Program-made: the position numbers and the translations under genes
Assembly: GCA_049287825.1 (NCBI GenBank)
Contig: JBAQGO010000114.1
Location: 1,538 to 65,537, forward strand
DNA length: 64,000 bases
Source: Vitreimonas sp.
GTDB lineage: Bacteria > Pseudomonadota > Alphaproteobacteria > Caulobacterales > Aquidulcibacteraceae
Direction of reading: 5' to 3'
Shown: piece after piece, positions 22,977-57,326 of the stretch
Numbering within the stretch: the stretch's first letter is position 1
Layout: every line of letters starts with the position of its first letter
The notes under the pieces: model-generated
What the model was told of the DNA's origin: nothing
The model's database searches: none
What the model saw: only the letters and a program-made list of their open reading frames with translations

Positions 22977-23315
22977 ATGAATGGTGCGCTGCTCAAACGA
23001 TCCATGAAGCTCAGCGGACGGCGAACCTCGGTGGCCCTCGAACCTGCGTTTTGGACCGTGCTTGAAGGGCTGGTCCGGGGGCGCGGACAAACCCTCCCAA
23101 GCTTTATTGCGCTCGTCCTCTGCGCCAACGCGGGACGCCCGGCCGCGTCGGCGCTGCGCGTCCATGCCTTGCAAAATGTTCTCACGCTGGGCCACGCACG
23201 CTGGGGCCCAAATCACAAACGCGGGCCGAACCGCTTGCATCCTCGCCGCCTTCTTTCACTTCAGCGGCGGCCGCCCGGCCATCTTCCTAAGCGTCGGCGT
23301 CCAATGCCTCTGTGA
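22977..23315 (+). CDS. ribbon-helix-helix (RHH_4-like) protein
   Basis: LLKRSMKLSGRRTSVALEPAFWTVLEGLVRGRGQTLPSFIALV...SALRVHAL matches the RHH_4-type pattern. The C-terminal 40 aa look non-homologous and overlap the convergent kinase gene. Confidence 0.5.
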   Translation: MNGALLKRSMKLSGRRTSVALEPAFWTVLEGLVRGRGQTLPSFIALVLCANAGRPAASALRVHALQNVLTLGHARWGPNHKRGPNRLHPRRLLSLQRRPPGHLPKRRRPMPL

Positions 23316-25848
23316 TGACACGTTGCAGATTGCGCTGCTCGAACGGTTTATCGAGTTTGAGCACGGAGAGCGCGTTCGCGGGCAGTTCGGCATAGCCGGT
23401 GGCGATGACAACCGGAAGGGCAGGCCAGCGTGCGCGAATCTGCTCGGCCAGTTCAAGCCCGGTCATCCGGGGCATGGCTTGATCGGTCAAAACCAAATCC
23501 ACCTGGTTTACCTGCAATATCTCGAGCGCACGGGCGCCGGAAGCCGCTTCAAACACGGTGTGGCCCATGTCCTCGAGCATGGCGACGGTGTTCATGAGCA
23601 CCAGCGCGTCGTCATCAACGGCAAGGATGCTCCAGGTTTTTTCCATCCCCGCGGCAGTCTCATCGGCGTGCAGGTCGGAGCGTTCTGACGCTGGAGCGTC
23701 AGCGACCGGCAGCAAGATATCCACTTTGGTCCCGGCGCCTCTTTGGCTTTGTAGGTGCAATCGCCCCCCGAGTTGGGTGACGAGCCCTTGCACCATCGAC
23801 AGCCCCAAACCCGTACCCTTGCCGACGCCCTTTGTTGTGAAGAACGGCTCGGTTGCCCGTTGCAGCGTCTGTTCGTCCATGCCCTCGCCGTTGTCCGACA
23901 CCGAAAGACAAACATAAGCACCGGCCGCAAGGGTTGCGTCGTCATCGATCAGGGTCTCGCGCGCTTCAATGCGAATGGCGCCGCCTTGGGGCAGCGCGTC
24001 TCGCGCATTGACCGCGAGATTGAGGATTGCAAGCTCCAACTGGTTGGCGTCGGCCCGAACCGGAGGCAGCGTCGAGGGGCAATCGACTTCCAGTTCAATT
24101 CGAGGTCCGAGCGTTCTTTGCAGAAGATCGACTACGCCATCGATGAGCCCGGCCACATTCGTCGGTTCGATCTTCAACTCCTGGCGGCGCGCGAAAACGA
24201 GCATGCGTTGGGTCAGGGACGCGCCGCGCTTTGCCGCCTGCACGGCGTTGTCGAGAAAGCCCAAGGCCTTAGCATCGCCGGGCATACGTTTGCGCAGGAG
24301 CTGCAAGCTGCCCAGCACCGCCGCTAGGAGATTGTTGAAATCGTGGGCGATGCCGCCGGTGAGCTGACCGATAGCCTCCATTTTCTGGGATTGGAAGAAC
24401 GCCTCGCGCGCCGCTTCCAGAGCGCGTTGGGCCTCCAAGCGTTCGGTGATATCGCGCGTGACCTTCGCAAAGCCGATAATTTCGCCGCTGTTGTCGCGAA
24501 TGGGATCGAGCACCACTTGAGCCCAGAAGCGCGTGCCATCCTTGCGAACACGCCAGCTCTCTTTCTCGAACCGTCCCTCTTCGCGCGCAGTGCGAAGCGC
24601 CCGCTCCGGCTCGCCGTTGGCGCGGTCCTCTTCAGTATAAAACTTGGAGAAATGCTGTCCGATGATTTCTTCGCTCGCGTATTGCTTAATGCGGCGCGCA
24701 CCGGCGTTCCAGTTGGTCACGCGCCCGTGCTCATCGAGCATGTAGATCGCGTAGTCGGTCACGCCTTCGACCAGGATGCGAAACCGCTCTTCGCTGCGGC
24801 GGAGTTCTTCTTGCACGCGCAGGGCGCCTTGAGCGGCGTCGCGCTCTTGCTCGGCTTGGCGGCGCTCAAAACTGAACCCGAGCTGGCGCGAAATTGTCAC
24901 CGCCAAGGCGCTCTCGGCCTCGCTAAAGTGATGCGGGACCTCATGATAGGTCATGAACTTACCGATCACCCCGCCATTGGCCATGATCGGAATGAAAGCG
25001 AGCGCTGAAATGCCTTCCGCGCGGATCGTCGCTCTCAGCTCCTCGGCCACATCGGCGACGGTGATATCGGAAATGAAGATCGGCTGTGCATCGCGTTCGC
25101 CGGGTTTCCAGGGGCAATGGCCTTCGACCGCGGCGCGATACTGATCTGAGAGATGACGCCAGCCCACGAACCGGGCGACGCCTTCGGAATCAAACAATAA
25201 GATCGATGCCCGGCGGCAACCGAAGGCGCTAAGGATGGCGTCGAGGCCGGCATTGACCGCGTCCTTGGAGCTGCTCGAGCGATACAGCGCGTCAGTAAAC
25301 TGAAACAGCGCCGCGTTCGTCTCGCTCTGCAATTCAAGCTGACGCGTTCGCTCTTGTAGAGCCTGTTCACCGCGACCGCGCTGCAGCGCAAGCCCTGCGT
25401 GATTGGCCGCGACGCGGGCGAGCATTTGCTCGGTTTCGGTGGGAAACGTTTCGCGTGTCGAAAAGCAGGTCAGCGCAGCTCCCGGTTCAGTGCCAAGCGG
25501 CGCTGACAAAGCACGCATCGGCCCAAAGCCTGGAACATCGAGCGTTGTCGCGGGAACGGGATGGCGGTAAGCGCTGAAACACGCTGCCGAAAGGTCGCCG
25601 CCGACATTGCGATCATGCGCATGCACGACCTCAAGAGCAGGCTCCTGCAGTTCCACGCGCGCGAACTCCGCGTCCAGCATACTGACGGAGAGTTGCGCTA
25701 GCCCATCTGCAATTTGACGTCCACTGGCATGGCTCCAGATCGCCTGCAGGTTCGATAGCGCGACCAGATCGCGCACAAGCGGTCGCAGGGCCTCGTTGCT
25801 TTCGCCCCTTGTACGAGCAGCGCCGAAGGAACCCCGCGTCGCTACCAT
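23287..25848 (-). CDS. hybrid sensor histidine kinase (GAF-GAF-PAS-HisKA-HATPase-REC)
   Basis: PAS (FRILVEGVTDYAIYMLDEHGRVTNWN), HisKA ([13 protein letters not shown]), ATPase (GTGLGLSMVQG) and REC (LTDQAMPRMTG, LDKPF). Confidence 0.9.
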   Translation of the reverse strand: MVATRGSFGAARTRGESNEALRPLVRDLVALSNLQAIWSHASGRQIADGLAQLSVSMLDAEFARVELQEPALEVVHAHDRNVGGDLSAACFSAYRHPVPATTLDVPGFGPMRALSAPLGTEPGAALTCFSTRETFPTETEQMLARVAANHAGLALQRGRGEQALQERTRQLELQSETNAALFQFTDALYRSSSSKDAVNAGLDAILSAFGCRRASILLFDSEGVARFVGWRHLSDQYRAAVEGHCPWKPGERDAQPIFISDITVADVAEELRATIRAEGISALAFIPIMANGGVIGKFMTYHEVPHHFSEAESALAVTISRQLGFSFERRQAEQERDAAQGALRVQEELRRSEERFRILVEGVTDYAIYMLDEHGRVTNWNAGARRIKQYASEEIIGQHFSKFYTEEDRANGEPERALRTAREEGRFEKESWRVRKDGTRFWAQVVLDPIRDNSGEIIGFAKVTRDITERLEAQRALEAAREAFFQSQKMEAIGQLTGGIAHDFNNLLAAVLGSLQLLRKRMPGDAKALGFLDNAVQAAKRGASLTQRMLVFARRQELKIEPTNVAGLIDGVVDLLQRTLGPRIELEVDCPSTLPPVRADANQLELAILNLAVNARDALPQGGAIRIEARETLIDDDATLAAGAYVCLSVSDNGEGMDEQTLQRATEPFFTTKGVGKGTGLGLSMVQGLVTQLGGRLHLQSQRGAGTKVDILLPVADAPASERSDLHADETAAGMEKTWSILAVDDDALVLMNTVAMLEDMGHTVFEAASGARALEILQVNQVDLVLTDQAMPRMTGLELAEQIRARWPALPVVIATGYAELPANALSVLKLDKPFEQRNLQRVITEALDADA

Positions 25849-25851
25849 TGT

Positions 25852-26475
25852 TCAGTTGGCGTGCTTGCGGCCGGCGAGTTCGACAAGAAATTCGTCCGGC
25901 GGCACATAGAACGGGTTTTGCTGCACCATTCCCCCGATAATGACCTGTGGATGGGTGCGCATGATATCCATCACAACGGGGGCACTGAACTTGTTTAAGT
26001 CGTAGGTGCATACGACGACGTCATTGTACTTCGGAAGAAATTTGTTGAGGCGCGTCTCATACTCAACGATGTCATGAACCCCAGGCAGGTCCTCCACCGC
26101 CCATTCCATGTTTGCCCAAAGCCTGGTCTGAGCGAACCCCTTGGCGCGGCCTTCCTGCAGCACCTCTTCAATGAGAGCGAGCATGGCGTTTTGATCAAAG
26201 CGGGCCCCGCGCAGGTAGGCGCCTTCCCAGGGCCGGATCTCTAATTGGCCATCCTGTTCCGCCTTCTCGACATCAAGCCCGGCCTCGCGCAGCCGCTCTC
26301 GGCGTTCGTCTCGATGATCTTTGTCCACCACCTGAAAGAGCCGCTGACCCGCCGCTTCGCCGGCTTTGGAAAAGGGGAGGAGAAGTTCGTACTCCTCGTC
26401 ACGGCTATGGAAAAACGCGCAAGCGTGGCAGGGACACGTCAGTGTCGACTGGCCGATTTGAATGGTTGTTTGCAT
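25852..26475 (-). CDS. MEDS-domain protein
   Basis: 207 aa. CHACAFFHSRDEEYELLLPF...RLWANMEW...VVCTYDLNKF matches the MEDS pattern. It ends 4 nt before the kinase start. Confidence 0.75.
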   Translation of the reverse strand: MQTTIQIGQSTLTCPCHACAFFHSRDEEYELLLPFSKAGEAAGQRLFQVVDKDHRDERRERLREAGLDVEKAEQDGQLEIRPWEGAYLRGARFDQNAMLALIEEVLQEGRAKGFAQTRLWANMEWAVEDLPGVHDIVEYETRLNKFLPKYNDVVVCTYDLNKFSAPVVMDIMRTHPQVIIGGMVQQNPFYVPPDEFLVELAGRKHAN

Positions 26476-26925: not shown

Positions 26926-27549
26926 ATGGTGCTCCGAGCGCTGATAGCCGACGACCACGAACTTTTCCGCAGCGGCCTGAAGCAGCTGCTGGTGGACAAA
27001 TTTGGGTCTGTCGAGGTCCGCGAAGCTAAAACCCTGGACGACGCAATCGACCTGCTCACGGCTGAAGGCGGCGGCGACATCATTTTGGTGGATCTGCGCA
27101 TGCCCGGCATGTCGGGAGTGGAAGCGTTGTCGGCGCTGCGCGACGGATTTCCAAACACGAGAGTGGCCGTCGTCTCGGGCTTTGACGAGCGCGCAGAAAT
27201 CATGGCGGCGTTAGGCGCGGGCGTGCACGGCTATATTCCCAAATCCTTGTCCGGCGGTGAAATCGCCGCCGCCATCAAAACCATCCTCGATGGCGGCATT
27301 TACGCCCCAGCCGCGCTCGGACGGCGTGACCCAGAGCGCTCTTTGCCAAGCGCGAACGCGCTCGACGCCGACAAGCTGACAGGCCGGCAAAAGGAAGTCT
27401 TAGCGGAATTGCTAAAGGGACAGGCCAGTAAGGAAATCGCCCGCGGCCTTGGCATTGCCGAGGGCACTGTGAAGATCCACCTGGCTGCGATCTATCGCGC
27501 GCTCGGCGTACGCACCCGCGCGGAAGCGATCGCGCGCCTCAGATCGTAA
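26926..27549 (+). CDS. NarL/FixJ (LuxR-type) response regulator
   Basis: REC (LIADDHELF, VDLRMPGMSG) plus a LuxR HTH (LTGRQKEVLAELLKGQASKEIARGLGIAEGTVKIHL). Confidence 0.9.
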   Translation: MVLRALIADDHELFRSGLKQLLVDKFGSVEVREAKTLDDAIDLLTAEGGGDIILVDLRMPGMSGVEALSALRDGFPNTRVAVVSGFDERAEIMAALGAGVHGYIPKSLSGGEIAAAIKTILDGGIYAPAALGRRDPERSLPSANALDADKLTGRQKEVLAELLKGQASKEIARGLGIAEGTVKIHLAAIYRALGVRTRAEAIARLRS

Positions 27550-27849: not shown

Positions 27850-28557
27850 TCAGCGCCGCGACAATTCCCATTGCCTATCGCGGGCGTCGCGTTCCGCACG
27901 AGCGTCGAGTGCGTTGCCACTCATCGCTGATTGCGCCGCTTGCAGAATCGCGGGGTCTATCGCTGAGGCAGCGGTGCGCATATCGCCGCTCTGCGCCGCC
28001 GGGTCGTGGGTGACGATCTCAAGCCGCCACCGCAAAGCAGACCGGCAGGCGAGGCCCTGCATCTGCGCAGCGTTCATCGCGAATGTGCGGCAGAAGGCGC
28101 CGCCGTTATTGCGATAGGTGAGGCCGATGCGCACCGGCTTGCCCGTGTCGGAAGCGAGCTGGGTGTCGAGCGCCTGATGCAGCGGGCCGGCGGCGACCAG
28201 CGTGGCGTTATCCGTGGACACGACAGCTTGTGGACGCAGCATGCCGATCCCAACGATCAAACCAGCGGCAAGGCTTGCCGCCATGGCGCCCCACTCGCGC
28301 ACGCTCCAGCGCGGCCGCCGCACGGCGAGCGACACGACATTCGCCGGCGCTTGCACAGCCGCCACAAGCTTCGCGGGCGGCGGCTCCTGGGCAATCGGAT
28401 CGAACGCGGCGTTGATGCGGGTGCGCAAGCGCTGTTGCGCTTCGAGCTGGGCGTGCAGAGCGGGATCGGCGTCGAGCGCGCGCTGCACTTCGGCGCGTTC
28501 GGCCTCCGACAGTTCGCCGTCGGCAAAAGCGATCAAGGTTTCGAGGTCGACCTTCAT
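27850..28557 (-). CDS. anti-sigma factor (N-terminal anti-sigma domain, one TM, periplasmic domain)
   Basis: MKVDLETLIAFADGELSEAERAEVQRAL..., TM WGAMAASLAAGLIVGIGML, C-terminal extracytoplasmic domain. The ATG overlaps the sigma stop (ATGA at 28557). Confidence 0.75.
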   Translation of the reverse strand: MKVDLETLIAFADGELSEAERAEVQRALDADPALHAQLEAQQRLRTRINAAFDPIAQEPPPAKLVAAVQAPANVVSLAVRRPRWSVREWGAMAASLAAGLIVGIGMLRPQAVVSTDNATLVAAGPLHQALDTQLASDTGKPVRIGLTYRNNGGAFCRTFAMNAAQMQGLACRSALRWRLEIVTHDPAAQSGDMRTAASAIDPAILQAAQSAMSGNALDARAERDARDRQWELSRR

Positions 28558-29057
28558 CACACAGCTCCCAACAGCGATTGCAGCGCTTCGCGCCCGCGCG
28601 CCAGCCGGCTCGTTACCGTGCCGATTGGCACGCCCAAAACGTCGGCGGCTTCGCGGTAAGCGAGGCCTTCTACGCACACAAGCGCGATCGCTTCGCGCTG
28701 CTCGTGCGGCAGCTGCTGCATCGCAACCCAAACATCTTGCGCTTCCAGCCGCGCGTGCATTGTACTCTCTCCATCCTCGCCCACCTGGTCGCCGAGTTCA
28801 GCGGCGACGAAGGTGCGGCCCCGTCTGGCGCGCGATCGAGCCTCGTCGATCCAGGCGTTGCGGACGATGCTGAACATCCACGCGTCAAGCCGCGTGCCCG
28901 CCTGGAACTGATCGAGACGACCCAAAGCCCGCTCAATCGCGATCTGCACGATGTCGTCGGCGTCGGCGACCTGACCCGTCAGGGAACAAGCAAACCGGCG
29001 AAGGCGCGGCAGCGACGCGATGATGTCTGAGCGGATCTGCTGCTGGTCGCTCGCCAT
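28557..29057 (-). CDS. ECF-type RNA polymerase sigma factor
   Basis: DADDIVQIAIERAL...LDAWMFSIVRNAWIDEAR and REAIALVCVEGLAYREAADVLGVPIGTVTSRLARGR. Confidence 0.9.
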   Translation of the reverse strand: MASDQQQIRSDIIASLPRLRRFACSLTGQVADADDIVQIAIERALGRLDQFQAGTRLDAWMFSIVRNAWIDEARSRARRGRTFVAAELGDQVGEDGESTMHARLEAQDVWVAMQQLPHEQREAIALVCVEGLAYREAADVLGVPIGTVTSRLARGREALQSLLGAV

Positions 29058-29154
29058 CTTTTCTCCAAAACGAGTCTGTTCCTGGTTTTAATCCATCTCG
29101 GTTGCGTTTTGGGCGAACCGGAAGAGAATCCTAACCTGGCTCGTTCTGTGAGGT

Positions 29155-30438
29155 ATGAGAGTGCGTCTAGCCGTCCTTGCCATCGCGCTGGTCCTGTTAA
29201 GCGAACCGGCCTTCGCGCAGCTTGGCGGCTTGGGGCTGCCGAGCGCGCAGCTCCCGTCTCTGCCGAACGTGGGGCAGGGCGTGCAGGACATTTCACGCCC
29301 CACCGAGGGCGTTGAAAATACTATTCGCGATCTCCCGCAAACGACCGGTGCGCAAATTCGGTCGCTGCTGCGCCAGCACCGCGACGCCATTGACCGCGAC
29401 CCGCAGGGCAATGCGATTGTCCGCGGCGAGGTGCTGGCCATCGCCCCGGGCGCTGCCGCGCTTTCAGCCGCGCAAGCGGCAGGATTTACCATTGTGCGAA
29501 CCGATGCGCTCGACGGCGTTGGCGACCTCGTTACATTGCGCGCGCCCAACGGCATGAGCGCGCCACAGGCGCTGCAACGCCTGCAGCGCGCCGATCTCCA
29601 AGGCCTTTACGATCTCGATCATATCCACTTGCCGTCAGGCGCAGCCGCTGCCCAGGCCGCAGCATTGCCCGCTGCAAGCGCGGTGCGCGCAGGCGGCGCA
29701 CGCGTTGGTTTGGTCGATGGCGGCGTCGGCGCACATCCATCGCTTGCAGACGCGGTCGCTGAACAGCGCGCGTTCTCTAGCCCTTCCGTCGTGACCACGC
29801 CCCACGCAACGGCGATTGCTTCGCTGCTGGTGGGCCGCGGCGCAGGCGTCGCAGGCGCAGCGCCCGGCGCCCAAGTTTATGTGGCTGACATCTACGGTGG
29901 TCAGCCCACGGGCGGATCCGCCGCGGCGCTTACCCGTGCGCTCTCATGGCTCGCTTCAGAAGGCGTGCCAGTGATCAATGTGAGCTTGGTCGGTCCGCGC
30001 AACCGCATTGTTGAAGCGGTTGTCGAACATCTGGTTGCGCGTGGGTTCGTCATTGTTGCAGCTGTCGGCAATGATGGTCCTGCAGCGCCGCCGCTGTTTC
30101 CGGCATCTTATGCTGGTGTCGTCGGCGTTACAGGCGTTGACGCTCATCAGCACGTCCTGATCGAAGCGGGACAAGGGCCTCAAGTTGCGTTTGCTGCGCC
30201 GGGGATGCCGATCGCCGCATCGGGAACGGGTGTGGCGCGCATGCGCGGGACCTCCTTTGCGGCGCCGGTAGTCGCGGGCTTATTGGCGACACGCCTTGCG
30301 ACGGCTGATCCAGCACATGCGCAGAATGCGGTGGCGTCGTTGCGTAGCGAAGCGCGTGATCTCGGCGCCCGCGGGCGTGACAACGTCTACGGCTATGGGC
30401 TCGTCGGCGCGAATTTCTTGCTGACCAGTACGCACTGA
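29155..30438 (+). CDS. secreted S8 (subtilisin-like) serine peptidase
   Basis: Signal peptide (LAVLAIALVLLSEPAFA) and catalytic triad contexts VGLVDGGV (Asp), HATAIASLL (His), GTSFAAPVVAG (Ser). The start may instead be the GTG at 29161. Confidence 0.85.
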   Translation: MRVRLAVLAIALVLLSEPAFAQLGGLGLPSAQLPSLPNVGQGVQDISRPTEGVENTIRDLPQTTGAQIRSLLRQHRDAIDRDPQGNAIVRGEVLAIAPGAAALSAAQAAGFTIVRTDALDGVGDLVTLRAPNGMSAPQALQRLQRADLQGLYDLDHIHLPSGAAAAQAAALPAASAVRAGGARVGLVDGGVGAHPSLADAVAEQRAFSSPSVVTTPHATAIASLLVGRGAGVAGAAPGAQVYVADIYGGQPTGGSAAALTRALSWLASEGVPVINVSLVGPRNRIVEAVVEHLVARGFVIVAAVGNDGPAAPPLFPASYAGVVGVTGVDAHQHVLIEAGQGPQVAFAAPGMPIAASGTGVARMRGTSFAAPVVAGLLATRLATADPAHAQNAVASLRSEARDLGARGRDNVYGYGLVGANFLLTSTH

Positions 30439-32882: not shown

Positions 32883-34433
32883 CTAGGTTTTGCCCGGCTG
32901 CAAAAGCCCGCGTTCGAGGGCGAAGAGGGTGGCGCCACCGCGGGTCTTCACGCCCAGTTTCGAATAAATGGCCTGGATGTGATTATCGACGGTCTTAGGC
33001 GAGAGCCGCATATCTCGCGCGATATCCTTGTTGGCGCCGCCGCGGGCCAATGCCTGCAACACTTCAATTTCGCGCGCGGTCAGTCCAGCCACGAAGGTCA
33101 CCTTCTTGACGCGCCCGGTTTGCCCCGCCGCCTCCAGCACCGCAGACACAGCTTCACCGCAAAGCCCACCGGCCCGCGCACGCTCGCGTAACTGAAGCGC
33201 TGCTTGCTTGGGGGCATGCGCTTCGCGTCCGCCGCGCACCTCGGTCAATGTCTGATAGACGTCTGCTGCAGCCAACAGCCGGCTCGCCGCGGGAAGATCG
33301 CTGCCGCGGCAGGCGCGGTGAAAGCCGCTGCCGTCGAGCCGCTCGTGGTGTTGGGCGATAACTACGCCAATCCGCGCCAAGCCGGGCACGCGATGCAGCA
33401 GCCGCTCGGCGTAATAGGGATGCAAACGCGATTGTTCCGATCCCGCGTGCGAGAGGCGCTGGGGTCCGGGAATGGCGGTGTAGCCGAGATCATGCATGAG
33501 GCCTGCGCGGCGCACCAGCGCGCGGTCCTCGCCAGAAAATTTCGCGACGTTGGCGGCGGCGTCGACAAGAGCGCTGACGGCGCGCGAGTGACCAGCGATT
33601 GCCGGCGATTTCAAATCGATGAAGTCTGCAAGCACTTCGCAAGCTCCGTCGAGTTCATCGTCCGACAAGGAAATATCGTCGGGCGGAAAATCGCAGATTG
33701 CACGTTCCCAAGCCGCGTCATCGTTGGTTTCAGCCAGCAGCCGCGCAAGGCGCGGCAACACGGTATCGACGACGGCCGGATCGTAAGCAGCACCGCTCCG
33801 GGAGTGGACGCGGGCGGCAACCTCATCGATGGACAGGAAGCCGCCAAGACGGATGCAATGATGCACGACGGTGGCGATCCGCACGGGTAGTGCGACCGCG
33901 TCGCCGACGAGGCCATCGGGTATGCCTTTGCCATCCCAGCGCTCGTGTGTCTGGCTCAGATTGCGTTGCACCGCGCCTGAAAGACCAAGGCGCTCGGCAA
34001 GCTTACCTGCCGTTTCGCAATGGCTGTGAAACACCCTGTTGGCCGCACCCATGATGGCGTTGAATGCAGCGTCGCCTGGCGCTTGCGGGCTCAGACCCTC
34101 GCGGCCGCTTCCGACGTGAGAGAGAAGCAAAGCAAGCATTTGCGCTGGATCGGCGCGCTCGATGCGTACTACTTCCTGGCGCAAAGTAATCTCATCGCCG
34201 AAGAGCGCGTTCAACACGTCGGTCTCGGCGTTGCAGCCGGATGCTTGCAATAGTCCCTGATAATAGCTTTCCGCGGCGAGGGCCTCGTCGCAACCCATGC
34301 CTCGCGCCACGTCCATGGAGGCCACCGCCGAACGCAGGCCGTAACCGACCGGTTGCCCGATCGCGAAGTCGACCGCGAGCGACAGCACGCCGATGATTTC
34401 GTTGCGGCGCACGGCGGGCGCGGAAGCGGTCAT
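32883..34433 (-). CDS. tandem HD/HD-GYP-like domains fused to a C-terminal LuxR HTH
   Basis: First domain is degenerate (THERWDGKGIPDGL). The second has GHSRAV, MHDLGY and QHHERLDGSGFH. C-terminus: LTAREIEVLQALARGGANKDIARDMRLSPKTVDNHIQAIYSKLGV. Confidence 0.8.
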   Translation of the reverse strand: MTASAPAVRRNEIIGVLSLAVDFAIGQPVGYGLRSAVASMDVARGMGCDEALAAESYYQGLLQASGCNAETDVLNALFGDEITLRQEVVRIERADPAQMLALLLSHVGSGREGLSPQAPGDAAFNAIMGAANRVFHSHCETAGKLAERLGLSGAVQRNLSQTHERWDGKGIPDGLVGDAVALPVRIATVVHHCIRLGGFLSIDEVAARVHSRSGAAYDPAVVDTVLPRLARLLAETNDDAAWERAICDFPPDDISLSDDELDGACEVLADFIDLKSPAIAGHSRAVSALVDAAANVAKFSGEDRALVRRAGLMHDLGYTAIPGPQRLSHAGSEQSRLHPYYAERLLHRVPGLARIGVVIAQHHERLDGSGFHRACRGSDLPAASRLLAAADVYQTLTEVRGGREAHAPKQAALQLRERARAGGLCGEAVSAVLEAAGQTGRVKKVTFVAGLTAREIEVLQALARGGANKDIARDMRLSPKTVDNHIQAIYSKLGVKTRGGATLFALERGLLQPGKT

Positions 34434-34699
34434 GCGCGAGAATTGCGGGCCACACCATCGCCTGCAACCAAAATCGCTAGTGGGACCCGGCGAATCGGCC
34501 GGCGCGCAACTGAGACGTCGCTTGCCGACGGCGACACGCAGGGTTCGCTTTTGGGGTCTGAGACGATGACCCGTCGTCACAACCGCTTCCTGATGTCGCG
34601 AAACTCGCCCTGGCGGCGCACCTCTCAAGCTCCGAGCGTATGACGATGTCAGCACCGATGCGCCCGCGCATCAAGGCTCCGTCTCGCATAGACTGACTG

Positions 34700-35270: not shown

Positions 35271-36905
35271 TCACGCCACGTCTTGGGAGAGGATTTTGCG
35301 AAGCGTGTAAGCCAGTTGCTCCAGGGTATACGGTTTCGACAGAACCTCGATCTCCTGGTCGCTGATATCGGAGCTAGGCGGGTCGGGACGGGCGTATCCC
35401 GTGGAGAGAACGATCTTAAGGTCAGGGCGCAGCATCAACGCTTCGCGCGCCAGGAGACGACCGTTCATGTCGGGCATGACAATGTCAGTGAAGAGCAAGG
35501 AGATGTCGGCGCGCACGCGAAGCACTTGCAGCGCCTCCGCGGCCGTTGAGGCAAGCAGCACCTTACATCCCAATTCGCGTAAGCTGGCGGCGCAGATTTC
35601 ACGCACACGCGGGTCATCCTCGACGAGCAGAACCAGGTGGGCTTCCCCCAATGGCGCAAGCGCGTTTTGGTGAGCGGGCGGGCGTTGCTCGCGTTCGCCG
35701 GCATGCTGGGGCAGGTAAAGGTTGAACGTCGTTCCTTTTCCGATCTCGGATTGAACCTCGACACCTCCGCCCGATTGTTTAACGAAGCCATATATTTGGC
35801 TGAGACCAAGGCCTGTGCCTTTGCCGACCTCCTTGGTGGTGAAGAAGGGCTCGAACGCGCGCGCCATAACCTCAGGCGTCATGCCGACGCCGCTATCGCG
35901 CACCGAGAGCGTGGCGTAGCTGCCGGCGCGCAGTGCGCCGCACGCTTGCGCGCTCGTCTCGTCGATCTGGGCGTTCGCCGTCAGGATTGTGATCGTCCCG
36001 CCGTCCGGCATCGCATCACGGGCGTTGATCGCCAGGTTGAGAATGGCGTTTTCAAGCTGACCTGGATCGGCCCTGGTCAGCCACAGGTCATCGGCGAGGT
36101 CAGTCACGATCACGACATGCTCGCCAAGCGTACGCAGCAAGAGTTCACGCATCGCGGAAACGATGTCATTGATGTTGACGGCCTTCGGACTAAGCGGAGA
36201 CCGGCGGGAGAAAGCAAGCAGGCGCTTAGTGAGATCGGCGGCCCGCTGAGCTCCGTCCAACGCCGCAGCCAGCAATGACGAGAAATCCTGGCCCTTGGCG
36301 CGCCGCTTCTCAACCAGGTTGAGCGCGCCGATCACGACGGCGAGCATGTTGTTAAAGTCGTGGGCTATGCCGCCTGTGAGTTGGCCGACAGCCTCCATCT
36401 TCTGCAGCTGACGCTGGTTTTCCTCAGCTTTCATTCGCTCTGCGACCGCTTCTTCCACCCGCGTTTCCAACACTGCGTTGAGGGCGCGGAGATCGGCGGT
36501 GGCCTGGTTCGCCGCGGCTTTCGCCGTCAGGAGTTCTTGTTCGTAGCGCCGGCGATCGGTGGCGCTAAACACCGTGACGCGGATAAAGCTGGTTTGACCT
36601 GCCTCGTCCTTGCGTTCCATGGCGTTGACCAGAACTGGCAGGCGGGCGCCGGAATTGGTGACAAAATCGAGCGCAACCTCATTGAAAAATCCCTGCATGC
36701 GCAGAAGCGGCGCGAAGTGGGTTTCATAAAAGATGCGGCCAGCGACATTCAGCAGATCGTGGAGACGTTTGCCCATTATCGCGCCGGCGTCGTATCCAAG
36801 CCAGTCGAGCAGCGTCTTGTTGACTTTGATGATGCGGCCGCTCGCGTCGAGCGAAAGGTAACCACAGGGCGCATTGTCGAAGAGATCTTCGTAGTCTTCG
36901 GTCAT
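35271..36905 (-). CDS. hybrid sensor histidine kinase (PAS-HisKA-HATPase-REC)
   Basis: PAS (LFDNAPCGYLSLDASGRIIKVNKTL), [27 protein letters not shown] (FTDIVMPDMNG, LSKPY). The ATG overlaps the stop of the hydrolase gene (ATGA at 36902-36905). Confidence 0.9.
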   Translation of the reverse strand: MTEDYEDLFDNAPCGYLSLDASGRIIKVNKTLLDWLGYDAGAIMGKRLHDLLNVAGRIFYETHFAPLLRMQGFFNEVALDFVTNSGARLPVLVNAMERKDEAGQTSFIRVTVFSATDRRRYEQELLTAKAAANQATADLRALNAVLETRVEEAVAERMKAEENQRQLQKMEAVGQLTGGIAHDFNNMLAVVIGALNLVEKRRAKGQDFSSLLAAALDGAQRAADLTKRLLAFSRRSPLSPKAVNINDIVSAMRELLLRTLGEHVVIVTDLADDLWLTRADPGQLENAILNLAINARDAMPDGGTITILTANAQIDETSAQACGALRAGSYATLSVRDSGVGMTPEVMARAFEPFFTTKEVGKGTGLGLSQIYGFVKQSGGGVEVQSEIGKGTTFNLYLPQHAGEREQRPPAHQNALAPLGEAHLVLLVEDDPRVREICAASLRELGCKVLLASTAAEALQVLRVRADISLLFTDIVMPDMNGRLLAREALMLRPDLKIVLSTGYARPDPPSSDISDQEIEVLSKPYTLEQLAYTLRKILSQDVA

Positions 36906-37696
36906 GCCGCCAAGAACGCCCGTATGGCGGCGATCGTCTCCTCCGGTGCGCTGAGATTGGGGCAATGGCCAGTGGCCTTCATGGTGACCAGCGTGCTGTT
37001 GGGCATGTGACGATGCACGTAGGCGCCCACCTCGGCCGAGGCGATGATGTCTTCGCTGCACTGAAGAATAAGCGTCCGCGCCGTCACCGCCGCCAGATCG
37101 GCGCGATTGTCCGAGGTGAAGGTTGTGCGGGCGAAGTGTTTGGCGATTTCGGGGTCGGTTCTACAGAAACTGTTGGTCAATTCCTCGCCCAATTCGGGGC
37201 GCTCGGTATTGCCCATGATCGAAGGCGCCATGGCCGCCGACCAGCCCAAATAATTGCTGTCGAGAAAACCCAGCAGCTCTTCGATCTGATCAGCCTCGAA
37301 GCCGCCAACATAGTCACCGCTATTGATGTAGCGCGGGGAGGGGCCGACCAAAACCAGCTCGCGGAACAAGTCGGGCGCCTTCGCGGCGGCGAGCACGCCG
37401 ATCATGGCGCTGACGGAATGGCCTACAAACACGCCGTCGGAAACCTCGACATCGCGGCAAATCTCGACGACGTCTTCAGCATAGCCTTCAAGGTTTGAAT
37501 ACTTTTCGCGGTGATAGGCGCTCAGATCTGAACCCCCGGCGCCAACATGATCGAAAAGCACGACTTTGAACTTGTCTTCGAATGCCGGCGCCACCCAGCG
37601 CCACATGTTCTGATCGCAACCGAAGCCGTGAGCAAAAACCATCGCCCGCTCGCCTCGTCCGCGAATATGCACATTGTTCCGTTGGCGGATGGTCAA
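36902..37696 (-). CDS. RsbQ / KAI2 / D14-like alpha/beta hydrolase
   Basis: MVFAHGFGCDQNMWRWV, nucleophile elbow VGHSVSAM, TGHCPNLSAPE. Proposed TTG start at 37696 is preceded by GAGGAG, giving 264 aa. The longer track ORF reaches 37837. Confidence 0.85.
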   Translation of the reverse strand: MTIRQRNNVHIRGRGERAMVFAHGFGCDQNMWRWVAPAFEDKFKVVLFDHVGAGGSDLSAYHREKYSNLEGYAEDVVEICRDVEVSDGVFVGHSVSAMIGVLAAAKAPDLFRELVLVGPSPRYINSGDYVGGFEADQIEELLGFLDSNYLGWSAAMAPSIMGNTERPELGEELTNSFCRTDPEIAKHFARTTFTSDNRADLAAVTARTLILQCSEDIIASAEVGAYVHRHMPNSTLVTMKATGHCPNLSAPEETIAAIRAFLAA

Positions 37697-37866
37697 GGGA
37701 GGCTCCTCGCGCCCGCATTCGGCGCCGCGGAAACATAGTGCCTGTGGCGTCAAAAAGACACGCAAGCCGCTGCAAAGAGGAGATCGGGCTGTGCGAGAAT
37801 GTGAAATGGCGCAGAGCCACCCCGCGAACTGCTGCAAGCCGTTGCGCGATTTCTCACATACAGCCT

Positions 37867-39405
37867 ATGCGCGAAATGAAGAAGAGCCTAGCTTGGATAG
37901 AGCGCTGGGCGCAGCTTTGGAAATCCAGGGTCAATCGCGCGGCGTCGAAGGCGCGGGAACGCGCGCGAGAGGGCGAGATGGCAGATTTGCCTGAGCTCGA
38001 GCAAGTCGTTGCGACAGGACCGCAACCAGGCCCGCAATGTGACGAACCGCGCTTTCGCCAACTTCTCGAAGCGATGCCAGAGGCGGTTTACACGACCGAC
38101 GCGCAGGGCAGGATCACTTTTTTTAACGAAGCAGCTGTGACGCTTTGGGGCCAACGTCCGCGCTTGGGTGAAAGCAAGTTCTGCGGCTCGTTGAAGTTGT
38201 TTTGCCCCAGCGGCGCGCCGTTGCCGCACGACCAATGTCCAATGGCGATCGCGCTCAAGGAGCGGCGCTCGATCCGGAACATCGAAGCGGTCTTGGAGCG
38301 GCCTGACGGGGTACGCGTGCCGTTCCTGCCGTTTCCGACGCCGCTGTTCAGCCCTGCCGGCGAATTGTCCGGCGCGGTAAATATGTTGATCGACCTGCGC
38401 GACCGTGAAGCCGCCAATGAGATCGGCCAGAGGCTGGCGGCGATCGTGGAATCTTCGGACGACGCCATACTGGCAAAGGATCTCGATGGCGTCATCACCA
38501 GCTGGAACAAGGGTGCGGAACGTTTATTCGGTTATGCCGAGCACGAGATGATCGGGCGCCCGGTCACTATGCTCATTCCGGCCGATCGGCTCGACGAAGA
38601 GCCCCGTATTCTCGAACGCATTCGCGCCGGTGATCGCATCGAACATTATGAAACCATTCGCCGTCGCAAGGATGGCAGCCTGGTTGAAATTTCTCTGGCG
38701 GTTTCGCCGATCAGAAATCGACTTGGCGTAGTGGTTGGCGCCTCGAAAGTGGCGCGCGACATAACCGAGCGCAAGCGCGCTGAGGCGCAGAAGACCTTGC
38801 TGCTTCGGGAAATGGATCACCGGGCCAAAAACCTCTTCACTTTGGCCAATAGCATCGTTGCGGTCAGCGCGCGGTCAGCCCAAGACGTATTCGAACTTGC
38901 AGCCATCGTCAGCAAACGACTCGGGGCTCTCGCGCGCGCGCATGCGCTAACACTGCAGCCAATTGACCAAAACGCTGAAAGGATCGAGCAATCGACCACC
39001 CTGCATGCGTTGGTCGGGGCGATTCTGTCGCCCTACATTGGCGACGAATGCGGTTCGGATTGGCGCGCGAGCATTACCGGCGACGACGTCGTGGTCGCGG
39101 CGGGGCGGGTGACAAGCCTTGCCCTACTGCTGAACGAGTTGGCAACCAATTCGGCAAAATATGGCGCGCTCAGCTGTGCTAACGGCTCGATCGACGTAAG
39201 CTGCGCTCGTAACGGTGGGGAAACTGTGTTGATCTGGAAGGAGCGCGGCGGTCCGCCTATCGAACAGGCAGCCGCGCAGGACGGCTTCGGCAGTTTTCTC
39301 ATTCGGGCGACGGTCGAGGGACAATTGGGCGGAGCAATCGAACGCCATTGGTGCGCGGAAGGATTGGAAATTATGCTCTCCATGCAGACATCAAGGTTGG
39401 CGTGA
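37867..39405 (+). CDS. PAS-PAS-HWE sensor histidine kinase
   Basis: PAS1 with PHDQCPMAIAL, PAS2 (IVESSDDAILAKDLDGVITSWNKGAERLFGY), HWE core (REMDHRAKNLFTLANS, NELATNSAKYGAL, GFGSFLI). Start set at the MREMKK ATG and is uncertain. Confidence 0.85.
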   Translation: MREMKKSLAWIERWAQLWKSRVNRAASKARERAREGEMADLPELEQVVATGPQPGPQCDEPRFRQLLEAMPEAVYTTDAQGRITFFNEAAVTLWGQRPRLGESKFCGSLKLFCPSGAPLPHDQCPMAIALKERRSIRNIEAVLERPDGVRVPFLPFPTPLFSPAGELSGAVNMLIDLRDREAANEIGQRLAAIVESSDDAILAKDLDGVITSWNKGAERLFGYAEHEMIGRPVTMLIPADRLDEEPRILERIRAGDRIEHYETIRRRKDGSLVEISLAVSPIRNRLGVVVGASKVARDITERKRAEAQKTLLLREMDHRAKNLFTLANSIVAVSARSAQDVFELAAIVSKRLGALARAHALTLQPIDQNAERIEQSTTLHALVGAILSPYIGDECGSDWRASITGDDVVVAAGRVTSLALLLNELATNSAKYGALSCANGSIDVSCARNGGETVLIWKERGGPPIEQAAAQDGFGSFLIRATVEGQLGGAIERHWCAEGLEIMLSMQTSRLA

Positions 39406-39626: not shown

Positions 39627-39800
39627 TCATTGGCGCTGCGCCAGCGCGTAGGCCACCAAGGCGTCGCCGACGGGTGTTTTCATAAAGTGGTGGCCGCCCG
39701 CCATGATCACGATGTACTGGCGGCCGTTGGCTTCATAGGTCATCGCCTCGCCTGTCCGCCTGCGGGCAATGTCGCCTGCCAATTGCACGCGCGCCAATAG
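39627..39800 (-). pseudogene. C-terminal remnant of a PQQ-dependent (glucose/quinate-type) dehydrogenase
   Basis: GEAMTYEANGRQYIVIMAGGHHFMKTPVGDALVAYALA matches the extreme C-terminus of membrane PQQ glucose dehydrogenases (PMTYEVNGKQYVVISAGGHGSFGTKMGDYIVAYALP as I recall it). The rest of the roughly 800-aa enzyme is absent. Confidence 0.55.
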
Positions 39801-39994
39801 AGATTTGGGCGCGGCGCATGAGCGGCCTTCGGTTGAGAAGCGCGCCTCGACAGGCGACAACCGGATAAGGCGTTGACGATTGGTCATTTCGAATGTGGTT
39901 TCAGTTTGCGACCTTGAGATTTTGAGATGCGCAAGTATTCGCGCGAATCGTGCAACCCTGACACGAGCGATCGGAACATTGCGGCGCGGAGTCG

Positions 39995-40279
39995 TTGGAA
40001 GTGGCTGGCGGCGACAACCTCAAGACGCCTCTTAAGCATGAGGCGCTGCCAGACGCGGCGCCGGCAATCTACCTTGGTCTGAAGCCCGACTTTACCATGG
40101 TGGCGGCCGAGCGCGCGCTTCAGACCAAAACGGCCGACATGGCGGTCGAAAAGTACAACATGCGCAAGCCGGAATCCGCAGGCGGCGGATTCGACGTGTG
40201 CAGCCCGATGCGCCCGCAGACCGATGCCGAGTGGGTGGAAAGCCAAGTCTGTCGCCACCTGAAGCGGTTGCTTTTATGA
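39995..40279 (+). pseudogene. internally deleted, diverged copy of the N-terminal PAS domain of the downstream kinase
   Basis: The 94-codon ORF reads AAPAIYLGLKPDFTMVAAERALQTKTADMAVEKYNMRKPESAGGGFDV. The kinase reads [23 protein letters not shown]...(about 50 aa)...[28 protein letters not shown]. Its TGA overlaps the kinase ATG. Confidence 0.45.
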
Positions 40280-43107
40280 CGAACCCGCCAGGTGTGAATG
40301 TCGACTTCGAAGCGCTGTTTGAAGCCGCACCGGGCATCTATCTGGTGCTCGACGCTGAATTCAACATGGTGGCCGCCAACACGGCGCGTCTCAACGCCAC
40401 CATGACGACGCGCGAGGAGGTTATCGGGCGCAACCTGTTTGAGGTGTTTCCCGACAATCCAGATGATGCAGCCGCCGATGGCGTGCGCAATCTGCTCACT
40501 TCGCTTGAGCGCGTTTTGCAAACAAAACTGCCGGACGCCATGGCGGTCCAAAAATATGATATTCCCCGCCCGGAAGGCCAAGGCGGCGGCTTTGAGGTTC
40601 GCTATTGGAGCCCGCTCAACACGCCAGTTCTCGCAAGCGACGGCGAGGTCAAATACATTATCCATCGCGTTGAAGACGTGACCGACTTCATGGCTCTGAA
40701 ACAGCAAGAGGCGCGTCTTCAATCGCATGCTGACCGGGTCGAGAATGAAATCTATCAGCGCGCCAAGGAAGTTCAGGAAGCCAATCGCAAATTTGAGCTC
40801 GCCAACGCTGAACTGGCCCGGCTCAACAGCGAGACGCAGGATTTAGCCGCGAGCCAGCAGCGCTTCTTCAGCCATGTCAGCCATGAGCTGAGGACCCCGC
40901 TCACCCTTATCCTCGGGCCTGTCGAGGCGCTCTTGGCCGATAGAGCCGCCTTGGGTTCAGATCAGGTTCGCAATCTTGAGGTCATCGCCCGCAACGCGCG
41001 CACGCTGCTTCGTCACGTGAACGACCTCCTGGACGTGGTCAAGTACAGGTCCGGCTCGACGCAACTCACTTATGCGCGTGCTGATCTGTCCGAGCGCCTA
41101 CGGGTCGCCGCGGCGCATTTTGACTCTGCCTCTACCGGTCTTGCAGTCACCATAGAACTCGCGGCGCCCGCGCATCTTTATGCGGAGTTCGACGTCGAGA
41201 AAGTGGACCGCATCCTCATCAACCTCTTGTCCAACGCCTTCAAGTTTTCACCCAGGGACGGGCGCATTCGGTGTAGCCTTGCAGGCGATCACAACCACGC
41301 CGCCATCGCGATTGCCGACGACGGCCCGGGGGTGGCGCCGGCCTTGCGCGAAGCCATCTTCGAACCCTTCCGCCAGGGCGATGAGGGGCTCACCGGGCGC
41401 GCCTCCGGCACGGGGCTGGGCCTTGCCATCGTTCGTGATTTTGTCGTGCTGCATGGGGGGTCAATTGCGGTTCGCGACGCTCAAGGCGGCGGGGCGCTGT
41501 TTGAATGCCGCCTGCCGCTTAGCGCGCCGCCAGGTATTGAGGTGGGTGAAGCGGCGCCCGGCATCGATGAGTGGAATTTTCACCAAGCCGTCGAAGAGCG
41601 AAGCGCTCCCGCCGAGCCGCTGGCGACGGCTTTAGTTGCGCCCGCGCCGCTTGTGCTCATCGTCGAAGACAATGCCGACATGGCCCACTTCATTGCTCAG
41701 ACGCTGATGCCGCGCTGCCGTATCGTGATCGCGGCCGATGGGCGCGAGGGATTGACCGAAGCCGGCCTCGTCCAGCCTGACCTCATTGTCAGTGACCTGA
41801 TGATGCCGAATATGAGCGGCGATCAGTTGATCGCTGCCCTCGCCGAGCGCCCGATTTTGCGCGACATCCCCGTGCTTTTGCTCACCGCCAGGGCCGATCA
41901 AGACACCCGCATCGAGGCGCTGCGTCAGGGCGCTCAGGATTTGCTCGCCAAACCGTTCTCAGCCGAGGAATTGCGCGCGCGCGTCGATAACCTCATTCGC
42001 TCCAAACAGGCAGCAGATCTCGTCCGGCGCGGCAAGCGCGTGTCGGAGCAGAAATACCGGCAATTGATGGACGGCGCTCTCGACGGGATTTTCATTCTAA
42101 CGGCCGACGGCGTCATTCTTGACGCAAACCGTCGCGCCGAGGAGTTTTGCGGTTGCCCCGGCGCCAGCCTTATTGGCAGTCATCTCGACGAAGCCCTCGA
42201 CGTAACCAATGCGAGAGGCGCAAAGCTCAATATCGACACCGGTCCGGTCTTTGAGACCGTTGCAGGCAAAGACGACGCGCGGCGCTTCTTCGAGGGGTCG
42301 AGCGCGGCTGTTGCCATCGACAATGAGAGCTATCGTCTTCTAATTTTGCGCGACGTCACCATGCAGCGGCGGCTCGAAGCGCAATTGCATCGCGTGCAGA
42401 AGCTCGATGCGCTGGGTCAGCTGACCGGGGGCGTTGCGCATGATTTCAACAACCTCCTAGGTGCAGTCGCGCTCAACATGGAGGCGTTAAAGGCCCGCCT
42501 AACCGAGGGATCGGAAGCAAGCAAGATTGCCGCCAATGTCGAAAGGGCCACCGAGAGAGGTCAGGCGATGACCCGCCGGCTGCTCGCGTTTGCGCGCCAG
42601 CAGCCTGTTGTCCCGCGGGAATGCGACCTCAACGCGCTTGTGACGGCCTCGGTGGAAATGCTGCAGCGAGCGTTGCCGCCTTCGATCAAGCTTGAGGTCG
42701 ATCTCGATCCAAGCCTTGGTTCCGCTTTCATCGATTCCGCCCAGTTTGAAGATGCGCTTCTCAACCTCGCCATAAACGCGCGCGACGCGATGCCGGCAGG
42801 GGGCCGTCTCGCATTTTCGACGTCGTCGGCGCGGATTGACACGGCAATTGCGGGGCTGGCGCCCGCCGGTGATTACGTATCCGTGGCCGTCGCCGACACC
42901 GGCGCAGGCATGAGCGAAGAAACCCAACTGCGCATTTTTGAACCGTTCTTCACCACGAAAGAGGAAGGCAGAGGCACAGGGTTGGGGCTGTCGCAAGTCT
43001 ATGGATTTGCGCGTCAAGCCGGTGGCGAGGTGCGCGTCGCCAGTGCGATCGGAGAGGGGGCAACGATCACGATCCTCTTGCCATCGTGCAAAATGAAACG
43101 CCGCTGA
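40276..43107 (+). CDS. multidomain sensor: PAS-HisKA-HATPase-REC-PAS-HisKA-HATPase (two kinase cores)
   Basis: Core 1: [23 protein letters not shown]: [19 protein letters not shown]. Core 2: [24 protein letters not shown]. Start at the MTNPPG ATG. Confidence 0.9.
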
Positions 43108-56784: not shown

Positions 56785-57326
56785 ACGCTCCAGCACTGAG
56801 CTCCAAACTCGATCACGAGATCGCTGTCGTGATGCACGTGGTCGAGCACCGCACGCTCGCGTTCATGCGCGACGAACTGGGACTGATCCCGAACGGCGTA
56901 GAACGGCGCACCCACCACGAGAAGAGCGTGACCTTGCGGCCGATCACCGCCATCGTCGCGGTAGGCTCGCGGGCTGGGCTCTATATCGCCTATAGCTATG
57001 ACGTTTCGCTCATCCGAGCGATGACCAAGCGATACACATCGGGGCTGGGCGTGGCCAATGACGCCGAAGAGGTGTGGATCCGAGAGACGGCTTCCGACGT
57101 CGTCAACGTCATTGTCGGCAACAGTACAGCTGATCTGGCTCGGCGCGGTGAACTGGTCACGCTGTCGCCGCCAGTGCTGATGGTTGGCGCGCGCACCATT
57201 CAGGGGCGCGACGAATCCACCATTGCGGCACTCACCATTCTCTTCCCCGAAGGCGCGCTCGATGTCGCCTTCGTTGGTCCTCGTATTCTCTTCGATGATC
57301 ATTTGAACCTGCAGGAGGCCGTCTGA
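56781..57326 (+). CDS. CheX/CheC-like protein
   Basis: ITAIVAVGSRAGLYIAYSYDVSL...ETASDVVNVIVGNSTADLARRGELVTLSPPVLMVG resembles the CheX fold, with an E-x3-D-x2-N...P variant of the CheC/CheX/FliY active-site motif. The ATG overlaps the kinase stop (ATGA). Confidence 0.65.
   Translation: MNAPALSSKLDHEIAVVMHVVEHRTLAFMRDELGLIPNGVERRTHHEKSVTLRPITAIVAVGSRAGLYIAYSYDVSLIRAMTKRYTSGLGVANDAEEVWIRETASDVVNVIVGNSTADLARRGELVTLSPPVLMVGARTIQGRDESTIAALTILFPEGALDVAFVGPRILFDDHLNLQEAV

Follow-up and report, generated by a model that had tools for sequence, protein, structure and literature searches.

In a 64,000-nt stretch of Vitreimonas sp. DNA (hereafter the window), the minus strand of the region 35271-37696 carries a gene for an RsbQ-type alpha/beta hydrolase and, downstream of it, a gene for a hybrid histidine kinase with an N-terminal PAS domain. 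Judged by sequence, the pair has every testable defining feature of the RsbQ-PAS module. Modules of a hydrolase and a PAS kinase were already described in 2011 (Nadezhdin, Brody & Price, PLoS One 6:e25418, PMC3183031), and this locus is an ordinary further example. We consider it likely that the two genes are co-translated, and that their products form a cytoplasmic two-protein sensor of the published type, working by the four-step scheme set out below.

The two genes share four nucleotides, TCAT at 36902-36905 on the plus strand, which read ATGA on the coding strand. This stop/start overlap, already pointed out in the initial annotation of the window, suggests that translation of the hydrolase and the kinase is coupled. 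An identical hydrolase was found on one public contig only, a 23.8-kb Logan contig from a soil metagenome. An independent gene call on that contig returned both genes alike, with a 264-aa hydrolase and the same 4-nt overlap. A scan for inverted repeats around the operon found none above background, and a scan for Rfam families around it was without result.

The hydrolase is of the RsbQ type

The initial annotation had described a 264-aa hydrolase with RsbQ/D14/KAI2 signatures, and all three motifs are present: HGFGCDQNMW (residues 23-32), GHSVSAM (residues 92-98) and GHCPNLSAPE (residues 243-252). In a phmmer search of the PDB, the best match was B. subtilis RsbQ (1wom, E 9.9e-92), which aligned over residues 3-263 with a single 1-residue gap, followed by the RsbQ-like protein Olei00960 (3e-73). 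Dozens of KAI2, HTL, D14 and DAD2 entries matched at 1e-47 to 1e-63. The closest unrelated hydrolase family reached only E 1.4e-11, and the protein did not cluster with unrelated families. These matches place it in the RsbQ/D14/KAI2 (DKR) family, where by alignment it is clearly RsbQ-type. Pfam assigned it to Abhydrolase_6/_1. NCBIfam contains no dedicated RsbQ model, and its generic matches (PcaD-like, 83-86 bits) were far under the cut-offs.

Alignment with the RsbQ triad identified S94, D216 and H244 as the catalytic residues. S94 sits in GHSVS, the GxSxG nucleophile elbow, and all three residues are invariant in 40 aligned relatives. The cap region aligns with that of RsbQ, again with one 1-residue gap, and F25, Y123 and L141 correspond to RsbQ F27, Y125 and L144, pocket residues that have been named as conserved in RsbQ and eu-KAI2.

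One pocket segment differs from B. subtilis RsbQ. At residues 190-195 (RTTFTS, 37112-37129) the hydrolase has TTFTSD in place of the AAFFSD pocket motif, in which a Phe reportedly blocks part of the pocket; the match of TTFTSD to the published F197 numbering could be off by one position. The position of the occluding Phe is variable in the 40 aligned relatives, with Leu as the consensus. The pocket of the window hydrolase may be larger than that of B. subtilis RsbQ. The B. subtilis protein hydrolyses butenolides, and its own catalytic His becomes modified; the same has been shown for the RsbQ of Stenotrophomonas (S. rhizophila).

The hydrolase and PAS genes are paired across about ten phyla

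The hydrolase was scanned against 185,579 species, with one genome per species, which gave 302 relatives. The top relative was 77% identical, and the best ones came from alphaproteobacterial metagenome-assembled genomes, Roseiarcus and Methylobacteriaceae. Neighbourhoods were inspected for the best 80 of the 302 relatives (63-77% identity). These 80 span about ten phyla and include Alpha-, Beta- and Gammaproteobacteria, Myxococcota, Acidobacteriota, Bacteroidota, Actinobacteriota, Chloroflexota, Gemmatimonadota, Verrucomicrobiota and Planctomycetota.

A PAS homologue (40-70% identity, E 1e-19 to 1e-59) is encoded downstream on the same strand at all 80 loci, at -14 to +112 nt from the hydrolase stop. 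With start codons picked heuristically, the two genes overlap in 27 of the 80 loci and are separated by 0-10 nt in 19 more. Unbiased clustering of the flanking open reading frames (ORFs) of the 80 loci returned only miscellaneous kinases, present in 25 loci and in no fixed position, and the window's own neighbour genes are not kept beside the module in the relatives. Because no other flanking gene is conserved, the two-gene module is the evolutionary unit.

The divergences of the hydrolase and of the PAS domain correlate (r = 0.61), a value reached by 0 of 2000 Mantel permutations. The correlation fits inheritance of the pair as a unit, and shared phylogeny alone could also give it.

The kinase PAS domain is of the RsbP class

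Pfam places the PAS domain at residues 3-119 of the 544-aa kinase. In BLASTP it aligned end-to-end with residues 1-129 of B. subtilis RsbP (33% identity, E 3e-29), and it matched the RsbP-type database protein P0001 at 35% identity (E 5e-31). The RsbP sequence used here, the N-terminal 129 residues, agrees with 10 of 10 residue numbers given in PMC3183031 and is reproduced piecewise by the database fragments P0003, P0005 and P0006. As a control, P0001 was compared with all other PAS domains in the PAS-rich window, and these gave E 0.017 or worse. In PMC3183031 a PSI-BLAST cut-off of about 3e-18 was used, above which the PAS domains without an RsbQ partner lay; our pairwise BLASTP E-values are a different statistic.

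The RsbP-PAS class is characterized by a conserved F-alpha helix, by nine to ten marker positions and by the lack of the usual DIT motif, and its members usually have a coiled-coil linker that is 21 or more residues long (PMC3183031). In RsbP the markers are C10, L13, L48, Q53, F55, C56, Y59, P62, E72 and P86, with the consensus C, h, L, b, a, a/n, n, P, E, P (PMC3183031). All ten positions conform in the window kinase, in which they are C14 (in an APCGY motif), L17, L52, R57, F59, Y60, H63, P66, E76 and P90, that is, the RsbP numbering plus 4. Each is conserved in 73-81 of 81 downstream proteins, made up of those of the 80 relatives and the window kinase. The PAS tail, FSATDRRRYEQELL, is without a DIT motif (D[ILVM][TS]), which is missing in 80 of the 81 proteins and present in one.

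Together these data support the assignment of the PAS domain to the specific RsbP-PAS class and not to generic PAS domains. The PDB holds no solved RsbP-PAS structure, and the best sequence matches of the domain there were generic (E 0.005 or worse); an RsbP-PAS model is absent from NCBIfam as well.

A HMMER search with the PAS domain against 1.84 billion representative proteins gave 305 clusters at E 1e-30 or better. Matches that consisted of a single stretch lay mostly near the N-terminus, and the non-N-terminal matches that were examined were mostly frameshifted calls joining hydrolase fragments to the PAS domain. Candidate natural hydrolase-PAS fusions (P0142, P0143, P0192, P0205 and P0214) were rejected as frameshifted metagenome gene calls. 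Another protein, P0170, in which an HWE-kinase-like C-terminal fragment is fused with an RsbP-type PAS hybrid kinase, could be either a genuine rearrangement or chimeric. Many PAS-HisKA fragments (P0014, P0037, P0038, P0041 and others) are named "RsbU/P phosphoserine phosphatase" by JGI. On kinases this name is a mis-annotation, though it reflects the same PAS similarity.

A helical linker connects the PAS domain to a complete hybrid kinase core

The initial annotation had called the second gene product a PAS-HisKA-HATPase-REC kinase. Pfam found these domains in that order, and with the AlphaFold2 (AF2) model the full order is PAS, long helix, HisKA, HATPase_c, receiver. The residues of the hybrid HisKA-class boxes are all present (H182, N290, D337, G363, D430/D431, D474, T502 and K524), and His182 is close to invariant in alignment A1.

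An AF2 monomer model of kinase residues 1-250, built from a 50-sequence alignment (mean pLDDT 89), predicts a PAS fold at residues 1-114 followed by an unbroken helix at residues 115-203, which runs through His182 into the DHp domain. Heptad a/d positions in residues 118-172 are 75% hydrophobic, compared with 31% elsewhere. A Foldseek search with the model returned generic PAS/LOV folds, and the best match to the whole architecture was the LOV-coiled-coil-kinase YF1 (4gcz).

Exactly 64 aa separate the RRxYE motif from His182, and the same spacing occurs in 33 family members. In other subtypes it is 37, 44, 57 or 58, and several of these values lie a multiple of seven apart, which is what a coiled-coil transmitter would lead one to expect. 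The same sensing module thus occurs with two kinase subtypes (A1/A3, loci L001-L080). The hybrid subtype has the sequence QKMEAxGQLTGGxAHDFNN and the fixed 64-residue RRxYE-to-His spacing; in the classical subtype the sequence is REQFIAVLGHDLRNPL and the spacing 37, 44 or 58.

The kinase scored 411.6 against CckA_Bruc (NCBIfam cut-off 1000) and 402.7 against PRK13557 (cut-off 631). With both scores under the cut-offs, its core is related to the CckA/PRK13557 subfamilies, but the protein is not a member of them.

In a Pfam scan of the 81 downstream proteins for output domains, 74 had HisKA, 73 had HATPase_c and 48 had a receiver. There was one PAS-GAF-SpoIIE protein and one HisKA_3 kinase, and the remainder were cut by contig ends. 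About 90% of the relatives' loci have a histidine kinase as the output, and about 60% have a hybrid kinase. The hybrid kinase is the commonest output among the close relatives, because a receiver was found in 48 of the 81 proteins.

Comparison with known systems

The closest counterparts are the histidine-kinase-coupled RsbQ-PAS modules of Gram-negative bacteria that were reported in PMC3183031. That study listed 45 modules in which the gene for an RsbP-PAS homologue directly follows that for an RsbQ homologue, the output being a PPM phosphatase, a histidine kinase (in three cases with a C-terminal receiver) or GGDEF, and a 2025 eLife paper (PMC12143880) restates the RsbQ-PAS module with kinase outputs. 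The window pair shares with these modules the RsbQ homologue upstream, the class residues, the absence of DIT, the coiled-coil linker and the kinase output, and, with the three published examples, the C-terminal receiver. It differs from them only in its individual sequence. In the literature searchable, no experimental study of a kinase-coupled RsbQ module was found.

With B. subtilis RsbQ-RsbP the pair has in common an identical triad, a bicistronic arrangement, a helical linker to the output domain and the PAS class, including the RsbQ-binding residues (F55/Y59, here F59/H63). The output is a PPM/PP2C phosphatase there but HisKA-HATPase-REC here, and the partner-switching sigma-B cascade of B. 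subtilis has no counterpart nearby. The proposal in the initial annotation, that the hydrolase-to-PAS logic is kept and the output swapped to a hybrid kinase, agrees with this combination of an RsbP-class PAS domain and a HisKA-HATPase-REC output, and with PMC3183031.

The plant D14/KAI2 receptors belong to the same hydrolase family, with a Ser-His-Asp triad and a capped pocket, and are likewise receptor-enzymes read by a partner protein. Their partner is the MAX2 F-box/SMXL degradation machinery, whereas here it would be the kinase PAS domain, and the window hydrolase is closer in sequence to RsbQ than to the plant proteins. In LuxP-LuxQ of Vibrio harveyi, an analogy drawn in PMC3183031 itself, a separate ligand binder docks on the PAS domain of a hybrid kinase and changes its output. 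However, LuxP, a binding protein, and the PAS domains of LuxQ are located in the periplasm, whereas here both partners would be cytoplasmic, with a hydrolase as the binder; the two systems are not homologous. YF1 (4gcz) resembles the kinase in having a PAS core and then a long helix directly into the DHp His. It is only 16% identical, senses light by a flavin within its PAS domain, and has the DIT motif, unlike the class to which the window PAS belongs.

Proposed mechanism and alternatives

In the first step of the scheme, the hydrolase would bind a small hydrophobic ligand, likely lactone- or butenolide-like, in its capped pocket, and would probably hydrolyse it slowly at S94/H244/D216. In the second step, the ligand state of the hydrolase would be read by direct contact with the F-alpha face of the PAS domain (F59, H63) and with the start of the following helix. 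In the third step, helix 115-203 would act as a dimeric coiled coil running into the DHp domain, and would alter autophosphorylation of His182. In the fourth step, the phosphoryl group would move from His182 onto the fused receiver, at Asp474, and from there to an Hpt protein or response regulator whose gene is not adjacent.

The scheme relies on homology to B. subtilis RsbQ-RsbP for the hydrolase-PAS contact, for the kind of ligand, for whether regulation is positive or negative and for the route of the phosphorelay. In B. subtilis, the RsbP PAS domain is necessary and sufficient for RsbQ binding, and the RsbP substitutions F55A and Y59A, which correspond to F59 and H63 of the window kinase, eliminate signalling and disrupt the interaction with RsbQ (PMC3183031). 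A published AF2 model of 2RsbP/2RsbQ places RsbQ at the PAS/linker interface (PMC12143880).

Several points weigh against this scheme. No native ligand is known for any RsbQ, in line with what the initial annotation said of the ligand; since the 2011 study, two bacterial RsbQ proteins have been shown to bind and hydrolyse synthetic butenolides. Exogenous synthetic butenolides inhibit, and do not activate, B. subtilis RsbQ signalling, and are therefore not mimics of the native ligand. No sigma-70-like promoter in the 281-bp intergenic region upstream of the hydrolase gene, and no terminator around the operon, stood out above background. Across the 80 loci, no third gene for an Hpt protein or response regulator is conserved beside the module. 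Lastly, unpaired RsbQ-like genes may exist beyond the best 80 of the 302 relatives.

One alternative concerns the last step only. The receiver could be an intramolecular phosphate sink or be autoinhibitory, with His182 phosphorylating a stand-alone response regulator encoded elsewhere. The same sensing module is found in 33 of the 81 proteins without a receiver (4 of them cut by a contig end or truncated), and there is no adjacent Hpt gene; the window receiver has all canonical residues and could serve in either role. Against this, one or two receivers are kept in 48 of the 81 proteins, and the closest kinase cores, the CckA-type hybrid kinases, use His-Asp-His-Asp relays. We regard this output as possible but less probable than the relay through Asp474.

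The main rival to the scheme as a whole is Model 1 of PMC3183031, in which the hydrolase is an enzyme that hands its product into the PAS pocket and the PAS domain is the true sensor. The product could itself activate the PAS domain as its ligand, or could be a cofactor with which the PAS domain senses something else, such as redox state or a gas. The intact catalytic triad would suit such a role, as would the requirement of the triad for signalling in B. subtilis (PMC3183031). The pocket-facing F-alpha residues R/K57 and Y60 are conserved equally with the residues of the outer face, and the PAS fold resembles cofactor-binding PAS/LOV domains. However, Ala substitutions of the pocket-facing Q53 and C56 of RsbP had no effect, whereas the outward-facing F55 and Y59 are essential (PMC3183031). 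In addition, the RsbP PAS domain has no known ligand or cofactor, and D14, KAI2 and RsbQ are receptor-enzymes that retain a ligand fragment on their own His. Product delivery is unlikely on this evidence, and we favour direct contact between the hydrolase and the PAS domain.

It is very improbable that the hydrolase is a metabolic esterase or lactonase that shares an operon with the kinase for convenience and has no signalling link to it, as its generic Pfam and NCBIfam matches might allow, because the pair is kept in 80 of 80 relatives in about ten phyla while no other neighbour is, the PAS class is itself defined by its pairing with RsbQ, and stop/start overlaps are common. Chance adjacency of the hydrolase and the kinase is essentially excluded.

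Feature coordinates and neighbouring genes

Coordinates of the features of the hydrolase-kinase pair are given in Table 1.

Table 1. Features of the hydrolase-kinase pair, in window coordinates
Feature	Position	Strand	Details and basis
RsbQ-type alpha/beta hydrolase gene	36902..37696	minus	264 aa, TTG start; ORF and sequence
Hybrid histidine kinase gene	35271..36905	minus	544 aa; Pfam
ATGA overlap	36902..36905	minus	hydrolase TGA 36904..36902, kinase ATG 36905..36903; sequence
Shine-Dalgarno-like GAGGAG	37703..37708	minus	6 nt upstream of the hydrolase TTG; sequence reading
Divergent intergenic region	37697..37977	strandless	281 bp between the hydrolase gene and the PAS-PAS-HWE kinase gene, presumed promoter region; sequence
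Catalytic triad of the hydrolase	S94 37415-37417, D216 37049-37051, H244 36965-36967	minus	alignment with the RsbQ triad
RsbP-PAS-class PAS domain	36564..36905	minus	residues 1-114; BLASTP, class positions, AF2 pLDDT >94
Conserved F-alpha helix	36693-36746	minus	residues 54-71, VAGRIFYETHFAPLLRMQ; AF2 model
Signalling helix / coiled-coil linker	36390..36563	minus	residues 115-172; AF2, heptad pattern
DHp/HisKA	36201..36389	minus	residues 173-235, His182 in GGIAHDFNNML; Pfam HisKA 174-235
HATPase_c	35706..36068	minus	residues 280-400, N box N290, G1 D337, G2 G363; Pfam, motifs
C-terminal receiver	35307..35633	minus	residues 425-533, D430/D431, phospho-acceptor D474, T502, K524; Pfam Response_reg

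The window (GC content 61%) is unusually dense in signalling genes, with at least nine sensor kinases in 64 kb. Divergent from the hydrolase gene across the 281-bp gap lies a gene for a PAS-PAS-HWE histidine kinase (37978-39405, plus strand; 475 aa by an independent call), the second PAS domain of which ends in a canonical DIT motif (ARDITERK). A divergent HWE kinase in a like position, 30-39% identical, was found only at two Microvirga loci (L039 and L045), so that its link to the module is not general. On the other side, about 600 bp downstream of the kinase gene, 32883-34655 (minus) encodes a protein with two HD-GYP-type (HD_5) domains and a LuxR-type helix-turn-helix, an unusual combination that is not conserved beside the module in the relatives.

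Two further genes each encode two kinase cores, in a PAS-HisKA-HATPase-REC-PAS-HisKA-HATPase protein of about 943 aa (40276-43107, plus) and in a HisKA-HATPase-REC-PAS-GAF-HWE_HK protein of 1271 aa (17306-21121, minus). Such a phosphorelay-like set within one polypeptide is uncommon. At 23287-26475 (minus), the gene for a MEDS-domain protein (207 aa) lies upstream of, and abuts, that for a GAF-PAS-HisKA-HATPase-REC hybrid kinase, and a REC-LuxR response regulator is encoded at 26926-27549 on the strand opposite to these genes. Elsewhere in the window are genes for an MHYT-GGDEF-EAL protein (50527-52566, minus) and for an MHYT-HATPase kinase followed by a CheX-like gene (54535-57326, plus).

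An extracytoplasmic function (ECF) sigma factor gene (28557-29057, minus) is followed by an anti-sigma factor gene (27850-28560, minus) with a weak zf-HC2 match, and a secreted S8 subtilase is encoded divergently from them (29155-30438, plus). A general-stress (EcfG/NepR/PhyR) locus was considered for 27850-30438 and rejected, given the zf-HC2 anti-sigma factor, the S8 peptidase neighbour and the lack of PhyR and NepR. An 86-aa ORF at 39627-39887 (minus), also called on the public contig, ends in YEANGRQYIVIMAGGH...GDALVAYAL. This C-terminus may resemble the end of pyrroloquinoline quinone (PQQ)-dependent dehydrogenases, in which case the ORF would be a candidate gene remnant; Pfam gave no match.

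Implications

The retention of an RsbQ-PAS pair at 80 of 80 loci in about ten phyla makes the pairing more general than reported earlier. A histidine kinase output also offers autophosphorylation as a simple biochemical read-out, which the PP2C system lacks, and because of this a kinase-coupled member could serve as an assay platform for the native RsbQ ligand and for the sensing of plant butenolides by soil bacteria.

It is doubtful, though conceivable, that in soil and rhizosphere bacteria the kinase-coupled RsbQ module is a receptor that feeds plant or fungal butenolides (strigolactone, karrikin or KAI2 ligand (KL)-like), or a shared endogenous metabolite, into a phosphorelay. If this were true, the module would be a bacterial two-component butenolide receptor, and its kinase activity would provide an in vitro read-out for the hunt for the native ligand of RsbQ and KAI2.

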